This document shows positions 56,031 through 62,000 of a DNA stretch of 64,000 bases, piece after piece. This stretch comes from Chthoniobacterales bacterium (GTDB taxonomy: Bacteria > Verrucomicrobiota > Verrucomicrobiia > Chthoniobacterales > Chthoniobacteraceae). The position numbers are program-made. Position 1 is the first letter of the stretch. Every line of letters begins with the position of its first letter. The stretch spans positions 51,787-115,786 of the forward strand of contig JBBQZX010000017.1 of NCBI GenBank assembly GCA_038207335.1. Direction: 5' to 3'.

Positions 56031-59000
56031 CCCGAGGAAGCCGCAGCGAAATCCGAAGCCGAGCGCGACGCTGGATTCGGGCTGGAAGACGAACGCGGCG
56101 TCGTTGAGCTGGAGCTTGCCCATCGCGAGTTTCAGGTGCTCGAAGTCGGCGGTATTGATCGGATAAATGCCGCTGAAAACCATCGGCTGCACGACTTGGA
56201 ATCCCGGCAGCGGCTCGGTGGCGGAGGCGCGCGCGGAGACGAGCGTGTCGCCGACTTTCGCGTCGCTGGTCGATTTCACATTCGCGATGACGTAGCCGAC
56301 GTCGCCGGCCTCGAGCCTTTCCTGCGGGAGCATCTTCGGCTGTTGCGGGCGGAAGATGCCGACCTCTTTCACCTCATACGTCCCCGGTGTGGCGAACATC
56401 TTGATCGGGTCGCCGGCCTTGATCATTCCATCGACGACGCGCACATGGACGACGACGCCGCGATACGTGTCGAACATCGAATCGAAGATGAGCGCGCGCA
56501 GTTTTTCGTTGTTGTTGCCCTTTGGAAAAGGGATGCGCGCGACGACTGCCTCTAGGATGCCCTCGATGCCGATGCCCGCTTTCGCCGAGCACTGGATCGC
56601 CTCGTCCGCGGGGATCGCGAGGATGTCTTCGATTTGCTTGAGGACGGTCGGAATGTCCGCATTCGGCAGGTCGATTTTATTGATGACCGGGATGAGCGTG
56701 AGCCCCTGCTTGGTCGCGAGATGGACGTTCGCGACCGTCTGCGCCTCGACGCCCTGCGCAGCGTCGATGATCAGCAGCGCCCCCTCGCACGCCGCCAACG
56801 AGCGGGAGACTTCATAGGCGAAGTCCACATGGCCCGGCGTGTCCATGAGGTTGAGTTTGTAATGATGCCCGTCCTTCGCGGTGTATTTCATCGCGATCGG
56901 GTGCGACTTGATCGTGATGCCGCGCTCGCGTTCGAGGTCCATCGCATCGAGGAGTTGCTCCTGCGACTCGCGTTTCTGGATCGTGCCGGTGAACTCGAGC
57001 AGGCGGTCGGACAGCGTGGTCTTCCCGTGATCGATGTGGGCGATGATGCAGAAATTACGGGTGCGAGTGTGCGGCATGAAAGTGGTGCGCCGGGTGGCGC
57101 GGGCGCGGAATATGGCGGCGCTCCGCCGATGGGTCAACGCAACGTGACCGCCGCAACCGTCGCGGCAGAAAACCTACGCCCAAGGCGCGGGCGCGAGCTT
57201 GTGCTCGGGCTCGCGGGCAGGCGCGCGGAAGGACATGCAGCCGACAAAAAGCGCGGTGAAAATCAAGTCGCTCGCCAGCGTGTTGCGGTAGAAAAACCAC
57301 GTCGAAGGATAGCCCGGCAGCCCCGTCGTGAGTGCCTGCAGCCAGCCGCCAAAGGTCTTCGCATACGCCGGCTCACCGATCCACGAACCCGTGTTCGTGA
57401 TCACATAAAAAACGAGCGACCCAGCCAGCGCAGCCGCGAGCATCCCGGTGATGCGCACCTTTCCGCGCAGCGCGAATCCGAGGCCCACGATCATCGCGAG
57501 TGCGAAATATCGAGGGAGGATTTCCATCGTGAAAAACGGGACGTGGTAGTGGAAGAGGTTCAGCGCGATGTCGCTCAGCAAAAGGATCGCGAGCGGCAGC
57601 GACCACGCCACGCGGCGCGGCAGATAGACCGCGCCGCACAGCGCGACTGCGGCGACGGGGGAGAAATTATGCAGCCACGTCATGTCCGCGCTCCCGGCGA
57701 TGCCGAGCACCACACGGAAAACGACGACGACCAAAAGCAGCACGAGCGGGGCAATCATGGAATCAACGTGGCGCGCGGTGGCTCTTCGGGCAATAGCGAA
57801 GTGCAACCGCCCGCAAATCCTTTGCTGGTGCGGCTCGGAACGAAATCGCTTGTCGCGCGACATGCACCGCCTACAGTCCGCCGCCAGTTCTTTGCGAGTC
57901 AAAATAGCCTGCGGGTCGAACGATGGAATTCCGTGAAATTCGGAAACAGTTGCGCTGCTGTGACTGGATACGACTCCCCAAATTGCCAATTTTCGCGCGA
58001 GCGAAAGTGAAGGCGGGGAGAAGGATGGCGAAGTCATTTTCGCCGAGAAGCCAGAAGTCAGAACATTTCCTCGATCCGCGCTCATTCGCGCCGCCGCTTT
58101 CATAGTGGCAGGCCCTGCCACGGGCAGCGGCGCGTCAAAACTTCTTCGCAAAAAAGAAGCAATGAGGGATCGCTCGTTTCGTTGCCCACGGCATTCCCAT
58201 GCCCTCGGCGCGTGCCACGGTCTCTCTCATAAATCCATCGAGACAGACCCATGAAAAAAGCACTCCTCATCTGCCTGGCCGCATTCGCGGCACAGGCATC
58301 CCACGCCGCGTTGAACGTATTCGACGCGTTCGCCACCGACCCCATTTCCACCGGACGCTGGAACTTCGGCATCGGCTCAAACGCCAACTCGCAATTTCTG
58401 TGGAGTAACACCGCTCCTGCATTTGCGGGCGATTCCGCCGGTTCGCTGTCCGTGCATCTGAACTCCTCATTGCCAACCGCCCGGCTTCAACGTCCGCTCG
58501 GCCAGACTTTCTCAGCCGGCGCCGATTTTTCGGTCTCGGTAAAGTTCAGTTTTTCAGTCACGAGCGCACCGCTGAACCAAGGTGTGCAATTCGCGTTTGG
58601 CCTAATCAATACAGGGCTCACCGGCGGTGACCGCACTGGCAGCCCGACGAATTACGGGAGCGACAATTTCTTTCACACCGTCGAGTTGAATTACTTCCCG
58701 AACCTCAGCAATTACGATCCGACGACTCCGGGGCCGACGCTCACGCCGGTCGCAGTCGGCGCGCAAAAGCCCGGGATGGACGGTTTTCAGAATCTCGCCG
58801 CGAACTTCAGCACGGACTCGGACCTCGGCGCGAACGCCAGCGGCATCACCGAGCTGCCACAAAACACCATCCTGCAAGCCACGCTCGCCTTTACCGCCGG
58901 CAATCACACGCTCGCGCTTTTGATGAGCCGCGTGAACGCCGACGGAACGCTCACCGCGCTGAATACCGAGGTTCCAGCGATCCGACTCGATATGCCGCCC

Positions 59001-62000
59001 GGATTTTCCACCTATGATTCGAGCCTTCCATTCCAAGTGAATGCACTCTCGATCATGGCCTACAACGACGGCTTCACGACCTCCGCAGACCCGTCGCTCA
59101 TCGCCGACATCACGTTCGAGGATTTCGGGTTTGCGTCGCCCGTGCCGGAGCCATCGTGCGCATTGCTGCTCGGGAGCGGCGTCGTGGCCTTTTTGTTGCG
59201 GAGGAAAAGCGGATCCGCTGACAACCGCTACGTTTGATCGAAGCAATGCATGAGAAGACGAAACAGGAGAACAGAAAAACAGAAAGGGGCGGGTGCGATC
59301 TTCTCCCGTCTGCACCCCTCTCCTGTTTTCCTGTTTTCCTGCTTCAATCCGAATCGTCGCGAACTCGGGATCATCGTCGCGCATTCACGCTCGTGGAATT
59401 GCTCGTTGTGCTCAGCATCGTCGCGGTGCTCGCGGCACTCGTTCTTTCTGGCGTGGAGAAAATGCGAAAAGTCGCGCAGGGCGCGTATTGCGCGAACAGC
59501 CTGCGCCAGCTCGGCGTCGCCACCTCGCTCTATCTCAACGACAACGACCGCGTCTTTTTCTCCTACTCGAAAACCGTGCCGGAGGGCCGTCTCTGGTATT
59601 TCGGACTCGAGCCGAAAGGCGGAGGCGGCGCGGAAGGCAGCCGCGTGCTCGACCAGACGAAAGGCCCGCTTTTTCCCTACGTCCAGCAGGTCGGCGGCAT
59701 CCAAGTCTGCCCCGCGTTTCCGTACGAGAGTTCTCTGTGGAAGCCGAAATTCAAGGGCGCGAGCTGGGGCTACGGCTTCAATACCGCACTCTCGGGCGTG
59801 AACCTTTCCAACCTCGAACATCCCGCGCGCACGCTGGTCTTCGGCGACTGCGCGCAGGTCAATTCATTCCAGCCGCCCGCCTCCGCGAAGAAGCCGATGC
59901 TCGAGGAATTCTACATGATCGAGAGCAGCTTCAAGACGATCCACTTCCGCCACGGCGCGCGCGCAAATATCCTCTTCGCCGACGGCCACGTCGATGCCAT
60001 GAGCATGTATCCCGGCACCGCCGACACGCGCCTGCCGGATGCCAGCGTCGGCCGCATCGCACCCGTCGGCAGCTCCGACTTTCTGCGCTGAAAATCGTGC
60101 GGTCTTGGCTTCCCATCACGCGCTCCGTAGCGTGCGCGGTTCCACTCCATGAGCATCTTTGAAAAAGCCCACACAGCCGCGATCGAAAGCCTGCACAGCC
60201 TCCGCGCGCTCCAGCCCGCGCTCGAGCAGGCCGCACAGATCGTCGGCGACTGCGTCCTCGGCGGCGGCAAATTGCTCGTCTGCGGCAATGGTGGCAGCGC
60301 GGCGGACGGCGCGGATTTCGCCACCGAATTCGCGTGCCGATTCATCACCGATCGCCGCCCCTATCCCGCGCTGAATCTCACCGCGTGCGGCAGCCTCACC
60401 ACCGCCATCGGCAACGACTACGGCTTCGAACAAATCTTCGCGCGACAGGTTCGCGGCTTCGGGAAAAAGGGCGACGTCCTCATCGCGCTCACCACCAGCG
60501 GCAACTCCGCAAACATCCTCGCCGCGCTCGGCGAGGCCCGCACCCAAGGCCTCGAAAGCATCGCCCTCCTCGGCCGCGACGGCGGTCACGCGCGCGGCCT
60601 CGCGACCGTCGATCTCATCGTCCCCGCACCCGCCACGGCACGCATCCAGGAGGGTCACAAATTCCTCCTCCACACCCTCTGCGAAATGGTCGAAGAGCGC
60701 CTGCTCGCCGCCGAGCCGCGCTAGAACGAACGATCGCGGCGATTCACTCCGCGGAGAAATGCGAGCGGCTTGGCCGCCCTTGCGCGGTGGATAGACCCAG
60801 TCGTCCATCCATGCATTCACGCCCTTAATAAAACATCGCGCCACGACCGAGTCCGTAACCTTCCTGCCGCACTTTCGCCGCCTGCACCGTGTTCCGCACC
60901 GGCGGCGCTGCCTGCGCGGAGAGGGTGGAGACGAAGACGATGAACGCGATGAAGCAGCCTTTCATGGCGGGCACTCGGCTGAAGAGAATGCCTGGAGCGA
61001 CTTCGGATGTGCGGAGGAAAATCGCAATTTGTCCACACACTGCTGGCGCTGAGCGCGCCCCCGTAAAGCAGCACGCTCTAACGCCCGCCAGACCACGAAT
61101 CCGCCAGCGCTTCCGCCTGCTTGAGCACCAGCGCGGTCGCCTCTTCCTGTCCTTCCGGCGGATATTTGTATTTGCGTAGGAGGCGTTTGATCAGCAGGCG
61201 CATACTCGCGCGGACGCTATCACGCACCTGCCAGTCCACCGTCGTGCTGGAGCGGAGTTTTTCGGTGAGTTCGGCCGCGAGTTTCTTCAGCGTTTCGTCG
61301 CCCATCTGCTGGAGAACTTCCGGACGCTCGGCGAGGGCATCGTAGAAGGCGATCTCGTCGGGATTCAGGCCGAGCTCCTCGTTGCGCTTGAGCGCTTGCT
61401 GAAAGTCTTTCGCCATCGCGATCAGTTCCTCGATCACCTGCCCGGTTTCGATGGCGCGGTTGTGATACTTCGCCAGCGTGGCGAGCAGGCGATCGCTGTA
61501 CTTCTTCTCCTGCACAATGTTCGTGCGGCTGCTGGATCGAATCTCGTCTTTGAGCAGGCGCTCCAGCAGTTCCACCGCGAGGTTCTTCAACGGCGTCTGG
61601 CGCACGTCTTCGAGGAACTCGTCGCTCAGCAGTCCGATATCCGGCTTCTCCAGGCCCGCGAGGGCGAAGATGTCGTTCACGCCTTCCGCCCGGATGGCGT
61701 TGTCGAGGATCTGCTTGAGCGCAGAGTTCTTCTCCTCCTCGGTGCGCTTCTTATCGACCGCTCCGTGTTTCACCAGCGCGGCGCGGATGGCGGAGAAGAA
61801 GGCAATTTCCGTCCGCAGCGCGGCGGCTTCGTCCAGCGTTGCGCACAGCGAATACGCTTTCGTTACCGAGGCCATCACATCGAGGAAACGCTTCTTGCCA
61901 TCATCAAGGCTGAGCAAGTGATTCGCCGCCGGAGCGAGCAAGGCTAGCGGCTTCGTCGCGAAGTCGCCGTAGTCAAAGCCGTGCATCATCCCGCGCACCG

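Follow-up and report, generated by a model that had tools for sequence, protein, structure and literature searches.

The window, a stretch of 64,000 nucleotides from the source genome (G000), carries a cobalamin riboswitch with the following features around it.

57174..57758, minus strand: DUF6580 membrane protein, 194 aa, with a predicted ECF S-component fold (PF20221, E 1e-34; model pLDDT 87.9)
57925..58059, plus strand: cobalamin riboswitch aptamer (RF00174, 50.9 bits, E 9.4e-10; gathering score 31.5)
58060..58250, plus strand: leader, probable expression platform (ViennaRNA fold)
58251..59237, plus strand: PEP-CTERM protein, 328 aa, candidate cobamide binder (TIGR02595; domain model pLDDT 97.2; riboswitch linkage)
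59246..60091, plus strand: prepilin-type H-X9-DG protein of a B12-linked subfamily (N_methyl, E 9e-8; TIGR02532; TIGR04294)
59256..59350, plus strand: 95-nt hairpin in the prepilin leader (−44.1 kcal/mol, predicted without a shuffled baseline)
60149..60724, plus strand: gmhA-like SIS protein (SIS_2; TIGR00441, 168.7 bits, below cut-off)

The aptamer aligned with positions 47–167 of the 189 in the RF00174 model, including the conserved core, and was the sole RF00174 match in the source genome (150 of 392 candidates scored), as an earlier note on this DNA had reported; searches of that genome with RF01689 and RF01482 gave no match. Judged by sequence, it heads two co-directional genes, the PEP-CTERM gene and then the H-X9-DG prepilin gene, which agrees with the order given before. 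No terminator-like site was found in the leader 58060–58250, and a hairpin at 58220–58248 was predicted by ViennaRNA, without a shuffled baseline, over the bases directly 5′ of the ATG at 58251. This fold suggests that the leader controls expression at the level of translation. The gmhA-like gene is not part of the module and serves as a flank fixing the locus in three related genomes (G004, G005, and G008).

The PEP-CTERM protein and its prepilin partner

The 328-aa protein consists of a signal-peptide-like N-terminus (judged by eye), a ConA/legume-lectin-fold domain of approximately 278 aa, and a PEP-CTERM anchor at aa 298–319. The anchor scored above the TIGR02595 cut-off (18.1 versus 16) and below that of the Pfam PEP-CTERM family (19.1 versus 20.7), and no other Pfam family was detected at E ≤ 0.1. 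The N-terminal signal, the C-terminal anchor with its PEP motif, hydrophobic helix, and basic cluster, and two exosortase genes (PF09721, above cut-off) in the source genome are the marks of a PEP-CTERM protein. Its domain model aligned with peanut lectin (Z 14.3, rmsd 3.3, 201 aligned residues, 11% identity), Foldseek matched it to ConA-like folds at E 6e-9, and sequence searches against the PDB gave no match. These data reproduced what had been claimed of the family, namely 104 homologues, no further Pfam domain, and a ConA/legume-lectin-like fold lacking a PDB relative by sequence. The modeled domain is thus predicted to have the ConA-like fold of legume lectins; since the Z scores of many ConA-like families differ by no more than 2 units, the fold alone names no function.

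Membership in three known families was negative at the sequence level. Lectin_legB (PF00139) had no match in the window protein and matched one of 133 family members, at E 0.05; the protein is not an HMM-level member of the legume lectins. For DUF4465 (BtuJ), PF14717 gave no match in this protein, the source genome, or the 133 members, and the HI-loop motif was missing. As to fold, the augmented jelly-roll entries 9FCT, 9I2L, and 9HMU did not appear among the structural matches listed, which leaves such a fold possible. For the BtuH domain, hhalign of the family alignment (A2) against a BtuH-like alignment (A7) gave a probability of 0.1%, and the PDB sequence search was negative. We regard the protein as a putative surface protein of a new, unnamed lectin-like family.

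A true lectin would, together with the pilin, fasten a B12-starved cell to organisms that make B12, to particles, or to glycosylated carriers of B12, and would serve B12 supply only indirectly. This explanation is favored by the best-matching folds, which are legume lectins and further carbohydrate binders of the ConA type, and by residues 144–151, which we take as similar to the loop that binds metal in legume lectins (E145 75%, D/N147 81%, Y148 95%, and P150 96% in A2). However, the position presumably equivalent to the aspartate that loop A contributes to the sugar site of lectins is poorly kept in A2 (D 38%, N 29%), the Lectin_legB match is confined to the single member above, and the family has a strictly one-copy, riboswitch-bound distribution unlike that of a general adhesin. 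In addition, relatives fill the same slot with DUF4465, BtuH-like domains, or a BtuB-like receptor. Also in favor of a lectin, a type IV-like pilus for glycan attachment has been proposed for Akkermansiaceae within Verrucomicrobiota (PMC13174399). On balance, we consider a true lectin very unlikely, and the position of the gene suggests that the lectin-fold domain probably binds the corrinoid directly.

The second protein scored above the cut-offs of TIGR02532 (27.9 versus 16.3) and TIGR04294 for H-X9-DG (19.6 versus 19), with the mature Phe at 59384 and Glu at +5. Its start is probably the ATG at 59246, with an in-frame TTG at 59234, and its leader is unusually long (46 codons). Partial copies of the 95-nt hairpin were found by blastn elsewhere in the source genome, on contigs C23, C22, C36, C3, C8, and C21. 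The protein had been called a DUF1559-like pseudopilin with H-X9-DG; the N_methyl and H-X9-DG motifs were borne out, but not DUF1559, as PF07596 gave no match at E ≤ 0.1 and the orthologues match it only over the first 28–40 of its 268 positions (model positions 2–40). Planctomycete pilins in cassette loci are full PF07596 matches (E 1e-38 to 1e-45). The window prepilin forms a distinct single-copy subfamily: its profile, A5, scored this protein at 316 bits and none of the other source-genome prepilins tested above 27 bits. The genome encodes filament machinery, with eight PilT-family ATPases and four secretins above cut-off, and the prepilin may be assembled into a filament.

B12 requirement and candidate routes of entry

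MetH and NrdJ of the source genome scored above cut-off and PduO was present, whereas MetE, NrdB, and CbiC were not found, nor were CobT, CobS, CobU, and CobQ with those of a relative as queries. By sequence, the organism has B12-dependent MetH and NrdJ, with no B12-independent alternative or corrin pathway gene found, in agreement with the need for B12 stated earlier. Salvage of cobinamide, a lower-ligand base or nucleoside, or cobalt instead of complete cobamides was weighed as well: cobalamin riboswitches also control salvage genes, one precedes cobT and further cob-like genes in the relative G002, and S-component folds include base and metal carriers. The absence of CobT/S/U/Q and CbiC matches means that the source genome could not complete such a precursor with known enzymes, and we regard this alternative as highly improbable.

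No match in the source genome was obtained for Plug, Peripla_BP_2, DUF4465, FecCD, or the receptors of relatives. The canonical Btu uptake proteins (BtuB, BtuF/BtuCD) were thus missing from this 94.7% complete genome, and the claim that it has neither a Plug-domain receptor nor a BtuF-type protein was confirmed. The one TonB-barrel match without Plug was also recovered: PF00593 at 30.6 bits over 98 of 436 positions, in a 1267-aa protein on contig C29 with only TPR-type NCBIfam matches.

The DUF6580 gene is divergent from the cassette and hence not downstream of the riboswitch. The best structural match of its model was BtuM–hydroxocobalamin (8OVV; Z 13.1, rmsd 3.7, 164 aligned residues, 13% identity), where a Z of 13 is within the structure tool's range for helical bundles; the first 16 matches were S-component-type folds, MreD among them. 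EcfT was not found in the source genome, and the model is consistent with a solitary S-component of the BtuM kind. DUF6580 had no sequence match to BtuM and no cysteine between model helices 53–71 and 80–97, the loop where BtuM has Cys80; an invariant C41 lies inside a helix. Invariant H30, D63, and Y84 and near-invariant R158 occupy positions like those of BtuM pocket residues H28, D67, Y85, and R153, by numbering only. Among 29 relatives having DUF6580, it was linked to the riboswitch or the pilin in 15 and unlinked in 14, so that the earlier statement that its relatives lack a riboswitch fails in the present sample. The same note had left the inner-membrane step without a candidate, with DUF6580 on the other strand; the strand was right, but the S-component fold supplies a candidate solitary inner-membrane cobamide carrier. 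We consider it likely that DUF6580 carries cobamide.

Conserved linkage and receptor exchange at the riboswitch locus

The riboswitch lay upstream, on the same strand, of a PEP-CTERM family gene in 23 of 25 genome loci, the count given before, in 35 of 40 scanned metagenome loci, and in 17 of 20 distant relatives. A same-type pilin adjoined the gene in 18 of the 25 loci, upstream in one of them; the count given before was a pilin following the gene in 19 of 26 loci. A full DUF1559 pilin separated riboswitch and PEP-CTERM gene in all five planctomycete loci (four of five previously), and a BtuF-like gene followed in 3 of 25, as described. A relative reported in G007 was not reproduced: the genome so labeled here had no match to the PEP-CTERM protein, and genome labels may differ.

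Chance insertion of unrelated surface genes downstream of an orphan riboswitch would explain the patchiness of the family, found in none of the 40 nearest relatives (single-protein search) and in 53 of 401 genomes of the class (profile). Against such hitchhiking, the linkage recurs in Verrucomicrobiota, Planctomycetota, and one Acidobacteriota record, across gene orders and three anchor types, and the source genome has one riboswitch in 5.17 Mb versus approximately 60 PEP-CTERM-like ORFs. This conserved linkage refutes chance in practice, and B12-responsive expression of the cassette is almost certain.

In one genus the locus runs DUF6580, riboswitch, X, gmhA, where X is the PEP-CTERM gene(s) and pilin in G000, G005, and G008 and, in G004, a receptor with Plug and barrel domains that among NCBIfam models matches TonB-B12 best. 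A second genus (g32) shows riboswitch, PEP-CTERM, pilin, and DUF6580 in G080 versus riboswitch, receptor, and DUF6580 in G142. Among 200 genomes of the order, in which kin are not independent, 85 had the pilin, 67 the receptor, 51 neither, and three both, versus 28.5 co-occurrences expected (within subgroups, 0 versus 3.4 in f1, 0 versus 2.8 in f8, and 3 versus 5.9 in f6). Of seven receptor loci held out, only two came with a riboswitch that reached the gathering score, and the receptor profile (A4) may therefore include non-B12 receptors. Gene order and content show that the cassette and a BtuB-like receptor replace one another at one locus and are almost mutually exclusive. The pair thus lies at the site of the usual outer-membrane B12 receptor of close relatives, which suggests an undescribed route of B12 entry.

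The partner of the pilin also varies. In G014 the position ahead of this type of pilin is occupied by DUF4465 (E 1.6e-54), a shown B12 binder (PMC13398666). BtuH-like domains are encoded next to the PEP-CTERM gene at 9 of 25 loci in one set and 9 of 20 in another, and in P0186 and L204 they lie in the same ORF as the PEP-CTERM family domain. They match the H-domain region of BtuG1 (8BLW_B residues 393–499; E 1.5e-8 by profile, E 2.5e-6 for one protein alone), a sequence relation over half of the profile (positions 6–111 of 217), with BtuH2 (7BIZ) absent among the matches listed. The pilin is the constant part of the module and the PEP-CTERM protein one of several exchangeable partners. The proposal of a candidate B12 capture module gains support from the same-locus exchange, the near mutual exclusion, and the occurrence of established B12-binding domains at this slot or within one ORF; it changes in its constant part, here the pilin, and in the inner-membrane step, for which DUF6580 is a candidate.

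Alternatively, the two proteins could be a surface or periplasmic reservoir that captures or stores B12 without filament movement, the outer membrane being crossed by a porin, the barrel-like C29 protein, or a divergent TonB receptor. Other Plug-domain receptors occur in 50 of the 85 pilin genomes, the source genome has its one PF00593 match, G094 keeps both cassette and receptor, each behind a riboswitch, no pilus assembly gene was recognized in the annotated cassette loci, and Bacteroides surface binders are accessory to BtuB (PMC10404256, PMC13616437). One would expect to find such a reservoir together with btuB; instead, near exclusion and exchange were observed, 35 of the 85 pilin genomes, the source genome included, have no Plug domain, and the C29 match covers little of the barrel. 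We consider this reading unlikely.

A proposed module and its known counterparts

Here, we propose that the cassette is a B12-repressed module for cobamide acquisition that probably takes the place of BtuB, the outer-membrane receptor. Its leader would permit translation under B12 scarcity. After export and exosortase processing, the lectin-fold protein would stay anchored in the envelope and there capture and concentrate cobamides like BtuJ and BtuH of Bacteroides. Once cleaved, the dedicated prepilin would become a minor or tip component of a type IV/type II-like filament, and would take cobamide from whichever binder the lineage has. Retraction would bring the cobamide through a secretin into the periplasm; it would cross the inner membrane via DUF6580, or BtuF/BtuCD in lineages with them, and be adenosylated by PduO. 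A role in cobamide acquisition is very likely, substitution for BtuB is favored to a lesser degree, and passage by filament retraction is tentative. Riboswitch control does not prove binding, because BtuL and BtuK2 of B. thetaiotaomicron lie in btu operons yet do not bind cobamide (PMC13616437).

More broadly, and speculatively, PVC bacteria may import nutrients across the outer membrane independently of TonB, with substrate-specific H-X9-DG/DUF1559 pilins as exchangeable receptors on a retractile filament fed by envelope-anchored binders. The cassette would be the B12 version replacing BtuB, with a new lectin-fold B12-binding family, ending in DUF6580 as a cysteine-free BtuM analogue. If so, the many further pilins of this group that PVC genomes encode would serve as receptors of different substrates.

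The Btu loci of B. thetaiotaomicron comprise BtuB–BtuG with BtuH, BtuJ/DUF4465, and BtuK (PMC10404256, PMC13616437, PMC13398666). Cobalamin-riboswitch control, exported and envelope-anchored accessory proteins, and, within the cassettes of relatives, BtuH-like and DUF4465 domains are shared with them. Unlike those loci, the window locus and its genome lack BtuB, anchoring is by PEP-CTERM and not as a lipoprotein, a prepilin dedicated to the cassette is added, and the candidate binder belongs to a ConA-fold family that shows no sequence relation to DUF4465 or BtuH. With the legume lectin/ConA superfamily it shares the fold at the low identity given above. DUF6580 resembles BtuM of Thiobacillus denitrificans, a solitary S-component B12 transporter (PMC6072759; PDB 8OVV), in fold and in the missing EcfT, and differs in lacking a counterpart of the invariant cobalt ligand Cys80. 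The sorting signal and two exosortases correspond to the PEP-CTERM/exosortase system (PMC1569441), and the N-methylation and H-X9-DG motifs to DUF1559/H-X9-DG prepilin-like proteins (PF07596, TIGR04294), from which the window prepilin is set apart by its subfamily; our literature search found no ligand or uptake role for either group. The Akkermansia MUL2 locus, in the available part of its report (PMC13174399), differs in its proteins (amuc_1099–1102), its fucose-rich glycan substrate, its proposed attachment role, and the lack of a described riboswitch or PEP-CTERM partner; like the cassette, it would represent pilin-based substrate acquisition in Verrucomicrobiota.

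Riboswitch-led cassette and its conservation

The cobalamin riboswitch was the sole Rfam match within the window and, as the earlier note had stated, the single RF00174 match in the genome (150 of 392 candidates scored), and a search for two other cobalamin riboswitch families gave no match. The cassette and its neighbors were arranged as follows.

57925–58059 (+): cobalamin riboswitch RF00174 (Rfam, 50.9 bits against a gathering score of 31.5; model positions 47–167 of 189)
191 nt directly 3′ of the riboswitch (+): leader between the aptamer and the first open reading frame (ORF)
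58251–59237 (+): PEP-CTERM protein of 328 aa with a signal-peptide-like start (TIGR02595, 18.1 against a cut-off of 16)
ATG at 59246 to 60091 (+): prepilin-type gene (N_methyl, E 9e-8; TIGR04294, 19.6 against 19)
Divergent, starting 166 nt from the aptamer (−): DUF6580 gene
3′ of the pilin (+): gmhA-like gene, the next gene after the cassette

The prepilin ATG lies 8 bases beyond the stop of the PEP-CTERM ORF. The prepilin type previously assigned to this pilin was confirmed, but no PF07596 match was obtained, and "DUF1559" is therefore a loose label for it. A predicted hairpin at 58220–58248 spans the bases preceding the first ATG, and no terminator-like site was found in the leader; both would fit translational control. 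No sigma-70-like promoter was found. In the prepilin leader, a 95-nt hairpin (59256–59350, +, −44.1 kcal/mol) lies in frame and extends the leader to 46 codons. Six or more further contigs of the genome have partial copies of this hairpin, which could be a small repeat or a site of RNA processing that tunes the ratio of the two genes. Elsewhere in the window, 52839–55160 (+) encodes a TPR-repeat protein of 773 aa that begins with a signal-like stretch and ends in an AhpC/TSA redoxin domain, and 61078–63990 (−) encodes HsdR, the R subunit of a type I restriction enzyme.

The PEP-CTERM protein had 104 close homologs and 131 representatives at E ≤ 0.001. Its gene was studied at 25 genome loci (17 Verrucomicrobiota, 5 Planctomycetota, 1 Acidobacteriota, and 2 unclassified), and RF00174 was present upstream on the same strand in 23, the number reported earlier; it lay within 300 nt of the match in 16 and within 1533 nt in all 23. 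The two loci without it were L008, at a contig end, and L019. Metagenomes yielded 62 loci, and RF00174 was upstream in 35 of the 40 scanned, which had at least about 600 nt of upstream sequence and included several near-duplicates. When 401 genomes of the class were searched by profile, 53 had the gene, in one copy each; 39 of these were distant relatives scoring 39–106 bits. Twenty of these, chosen across families with their context not known beforehand, were fetched: RF00174 was upstream on the same strand in 17, the same pilin directly downstream in 16, and a BtuH-like neighbor present in 9. Set beside these counts, a chance association of riboswitch and gene seems scarcely credible.

The same pilin type adjoined the gene in 18 of the 25 genome loci (17 downstream, 1 upstream), which upholds the linkage noted earlier but not its count of 19 of 26; two loci had no pilin. 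The planctomycete arrangement, with a full-length-match DUF1559 pilin between riboswitch and gene, was also as claimed, although in five of five loci rather than four. A BtuF-like gene was found in three loci, in agreement with the note, and two of these also had a FecCD-ABC fusion. Nine loci held a second exported gene, mostly PEP-CTERM-tailed, of a BtuH-like family. In tblastn, many genes also had a short BtuH-like match immediately 5′ of them; these matches were excluded before counting, as the query contained leader read-through. The profile of this family matched residues 393–499 of 8BLW chain B (E 1.5e-8) with partial coverage, and 7BIZ was absent among the matches listed. 8BLW is BtuB1G1, and the C-terminal BtuH domain of BtuG1 is described as a second B12 site in PMC10404256. 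A single-protein PDB search with two BtuH-like partners gave nothing relevant, and the BtuH link came from the profile and one other family member only. Lectin-fold and BtuH-like domains were joined in one ORF in P0186 and in L204.

Two PEP-CTERM-type proteins were encoded per open frame in L001:7239–9116, L019:6999–9113, P0066, P0153, and L125:1898–3418, the halves being separated by an internal PEP-CTERM motif but not by a stop codon; these may be either tandem fusions or separately started genes. All five planctomycete loci (L010, L016, L018, L020, and L021) had a class I methyltransferase after the BtuH-like gene (e.g., L016:9983–10774), whose best NCBIfam match, CpaM (corrinoid protein-associated methyltransferase), was far below cut-off.

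Pilin subfamily and its varying partners

None of 40 relatives' genomes matched the PEP-CTERM protein. The pilin was found in 16 of them at E ≤ 1e-20, with RF00174 within 1.9 kb upstream in 12. The slot between riboswitch and pilin was occupied by various genes: DUF4465 in G014 (E 1.6e-54), a BtuH-like gene in G005 and G015, an unnamed PEP-CTERM family (A6) in most, and a further unnamed family in G008, the pilin of which shares 90% identity with that of the window. According to PMC13398666, DUF4465 proteins bind B12, two of them being from Verrucomicrobiota by genus names. As the partners of a single pilin type are several binders unrelated to each other, it is probably the cobamide, not the surface of a binder, that the pilin recognizes.

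Members of the B12-linked pilin subfamily scored 266–316 bits against its profile, and pilins of a second riboswitch-linked type 79–99; neither the planctomycete DUF1559 pilins nor the other prepilins tested from the window's genome exceeded 27. From these scores, such cassettes draw on at least two distinct lineages of pilin. The second type (L138:2363–3154, L139:4009–4779, L141:2205–3014, and L144:3689–4708) follows paired PEP-CTERM genes in the same family.

A6 (L122:460–1242, L124:2547–3386, L127:1405–2208, L134:4085–4852, and others) was the commonest slot gene in the order and is a further candidate B12 binder. It gave no Pfam, PDB, or named Atlas match, and the idea that it is transcobalamin/DUF4430-like was unsupported by these searches. 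Two further slot families consist of riboswitch-led PEP-CTERM proteins, about 360 aa long and repeat-like in sequence (L121:2758–3900, L138:3993–5066, L141:3832–4917, and L139:1806–3143), which looked propeller-like by eye. Other cobalamin riboswitches of the relatives (L146, L147, L151, L152, and L145) stand before expected targets of the B12 regulon: class Ia ribonucleotide reductase genes, metE, or cobT.

Exchange with a BtuB-like receptor and B12 economy

Four genomes of genus g1, namely the window's genome (G000), G004, G005, and G008, keep one gene order: a divergent DUF6580, the riboswitch, X, and gmhA. X is the PEP-CTERM gene(s) with the pilin in G000, G005, and G008, and a Plug-and-barrel receptor in G004, for which the best NCBIfam model was TonB-B12, at 208.7 bits and thus short of its 599.7 cut-off. 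Genus g32 shows riboswitch, PEP-CTERM gene, pilin, and DUF6580 in G080, and riboswitch, receptor, and DUF6580 in G142.

This exchange was surveyed in 201 genomes of the order, each at least 90% complete, using the pilin profile and a receptor profile built from nine riboswitch-adjacent receptors, which matched 85 and 68 genomes, respectively. Among 200 genomes (one unpublished genome left out), 3 had both, 82 the pilin only, 64 the receptor only, and 51 neither. The 3 co-occurrences compare with 28.5 expected, a difference whose p-values are overstated as kin are not independent; by family, observed and expected values were 0 and 3.4 (f1), 0 and 2.8 (f8), and 3 and 5.9 (f6), and genus g22 had none in 11. 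On checking further matches, a cobalamin riboswitch accompanied 9 of 13 pilin loci (one of the nine apparently on a contig already in the profile, and two of the misses ending at contig edges) and only 2 of 7 receptor loci. The cassette might instead be an accessory reservoir served by another outer-membrane route: G094 carries both pilin cassette and receptor, each behind a riboswitch, and 50 of the 85 pilin genomes have other receptors. No Plug domain was found in the remaining 35, and we regard the reservoir as possible but rather unlikely. In G022, all three cassette genes (L128, G022:C2:556971–559259) are frameshifted and a riboswitch-led TonB receptor is also present, reflecting either decay following btuB gain or assembly errors.

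The B12 need claimed for G000 was borne out by MetH and NrdJ above NCBIfam cut-offs, and PduO was found. BLAST with MetE, NrdB, CobT, CobS, CobU, CobQ, two TonB receptors, and one FecCD domain of relatives gave no match in G000, and CobD gave only 28–31% identity. CbiC, Plug, Peripla_BP_2, and DUF4465 had no match either, consistent with the earlier claim of no Plug receptor and no BtuF-type protein. Because the genome is 94.7% complete, these genes are to be called not found rather than absent. Precursor salvage as the role of the cassette appears very improbable beside this gene content. A weak TonB-barrel match (30.6 bits, 98 of 436 positions) fell in a 1267-aa ORF whose NCBIfam matches were TPR-type only; this exported protein (G000:C29:60869–64669, L181:1870–5670) ends in Phe and is possibly an unusual outer-membrane barrel. 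Contigs C3, C5, C6, C23, and C34 of the 5.2-Mb genome carry 8 PilT-family ATPases and 4 secretins, all above cut-off, together with 24 prepilin-motif ORFs, yet no Plug-domain receptor was found in this genome. Two exosortases likewise scored above cut-off.

Lectin fold, DUF6580, and a proposed uptake route

Among the 104 homologs, 61 had a PEP-type motif, 37 a different short tail, and 6 neither; dockerin tails occurred in 8 of 133 aligned family members. Since the tails differ, the lectin-fold domain travels with several anchors. Its AlphaFold2 model was all-beta (pLDDT 97.2, pTM 0.93), and the best fold matches of the model were ConA-like. Peanut lectin aligned over 201 residues at Z 14.3, rmsd 3.3, and 11% identity, and numerous families of lectins and glycanases scored no more than 2 Z units apart. 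Conservation is concentrated in the loops (N120, T124, G125, R128, G130, Y148, F149, P150, and D273), and residues 144–151 presumably recall the metal loop of legume lectins. A PDB sequence search found no relative; one short lectin-toxin match (E 0.007) was judged to be chance. Neither the protein nor its family members matched DUF4465, and no profile link to BtuH-like domains was found. DUF4465, BtuH, and BtuK entries were absent among the best 50 matches listed in either fold search, which does not imply exclusion. In the ESM Atlas, the top matches were unnamed Verrucomicrobiota clusters; DUF6645 and DUF6772 are tentative leads.

The closest folds bind sugars, and a pilus for glycan attachment has been proposed in Akkermansiaceae (PMC13174399); set beside the riboswitch linkage, an adhesive lectin is nevertheless improbable in our judgment. 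BtuL and BtuK2 sit in btu operons and, according to PMC13616437, do not bind cobamide, which together with the sugar-binding folds counts against direct binding by every part.

The DUF6580 model (pLDDT 87.9) best matched BtuM with hydroxocobalamin (8OVV, Z 13.1, rmsd 3.7, 164 aligned), followed by BioY (Z 11.1) and other S-components (CbrT, 5.9); Z 13 for a helical bundle alone is indecisive, yet the ranking is one fold class. Foldseek gave nothing significant (BtuM, E 0.54), and EcfT was not found in G000. DUF6580 occurred in 29 of the 40 relatives: 7 copies directly after the pilin, 14 unlinked, and 8 divergent from a riboswitch (one of them 1.1 kb away, the other 7 within 300 nt). The note's remark that its relatives in 3 other genomes have no riboswitch therefore does not hold in this sample. 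The loop of DUF6580 lacks an equivalent of Cys80, a residue invariant in BtuM (PMC6072759); at most, DUF6580 would therefore act in the manner of BtuM, without belonging to that family.

The simplest account, which we favor with some reserve, is that the cassette is a B12-repressed substitute for BtuB. An envelope-anchored binder would concentrate cobamide, a dedicated pilin, as part of a type IV/type II-like filament, would carry it through a secretin, and DUF6580 or BtuFCD would complete import. The final location of PEP-CTERM proteins is itself a proposal (PMC1569441).

To our knowledge, outer-membrane B12 uptake is understood through BtuB only. In the literature covered, which excludes most subscription papers and all supplements, we found no link of a cobalamin riboswitch to PEP-CTERM, DUF1559, or H-X9-DG pilins and no paper naming DUF6580; supplementary regulon tables could list cassette genes. 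PMC8941943 and PMC12530212 contributed nothing further. This window contributes the family with the lectin fold, the exchange at one locus, and the near-exclusion of pilin and receptor across the order. BtuB substitution, if true, would give abundant soil and freshwater Verrucomicrobia a second outer-membrane B12 route and account for the life of B12 auxotrophs without any TonB receptor. It would nominate a new fold family as a candidate B12 binder and DUF6580 as a candidate inner-membrane carrier. The large uncharacterized H-X9-DG/DUF1559 pilin group would gain a member with a defined, colored, commercially available ligand, making solute binding or import by such pilins directly testable. 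Relative to the published record, the cassette is a new, separate class only if it substitutes for BtuB; as an accessory reservoir, it would be a variant of the known Btu accessory systems.
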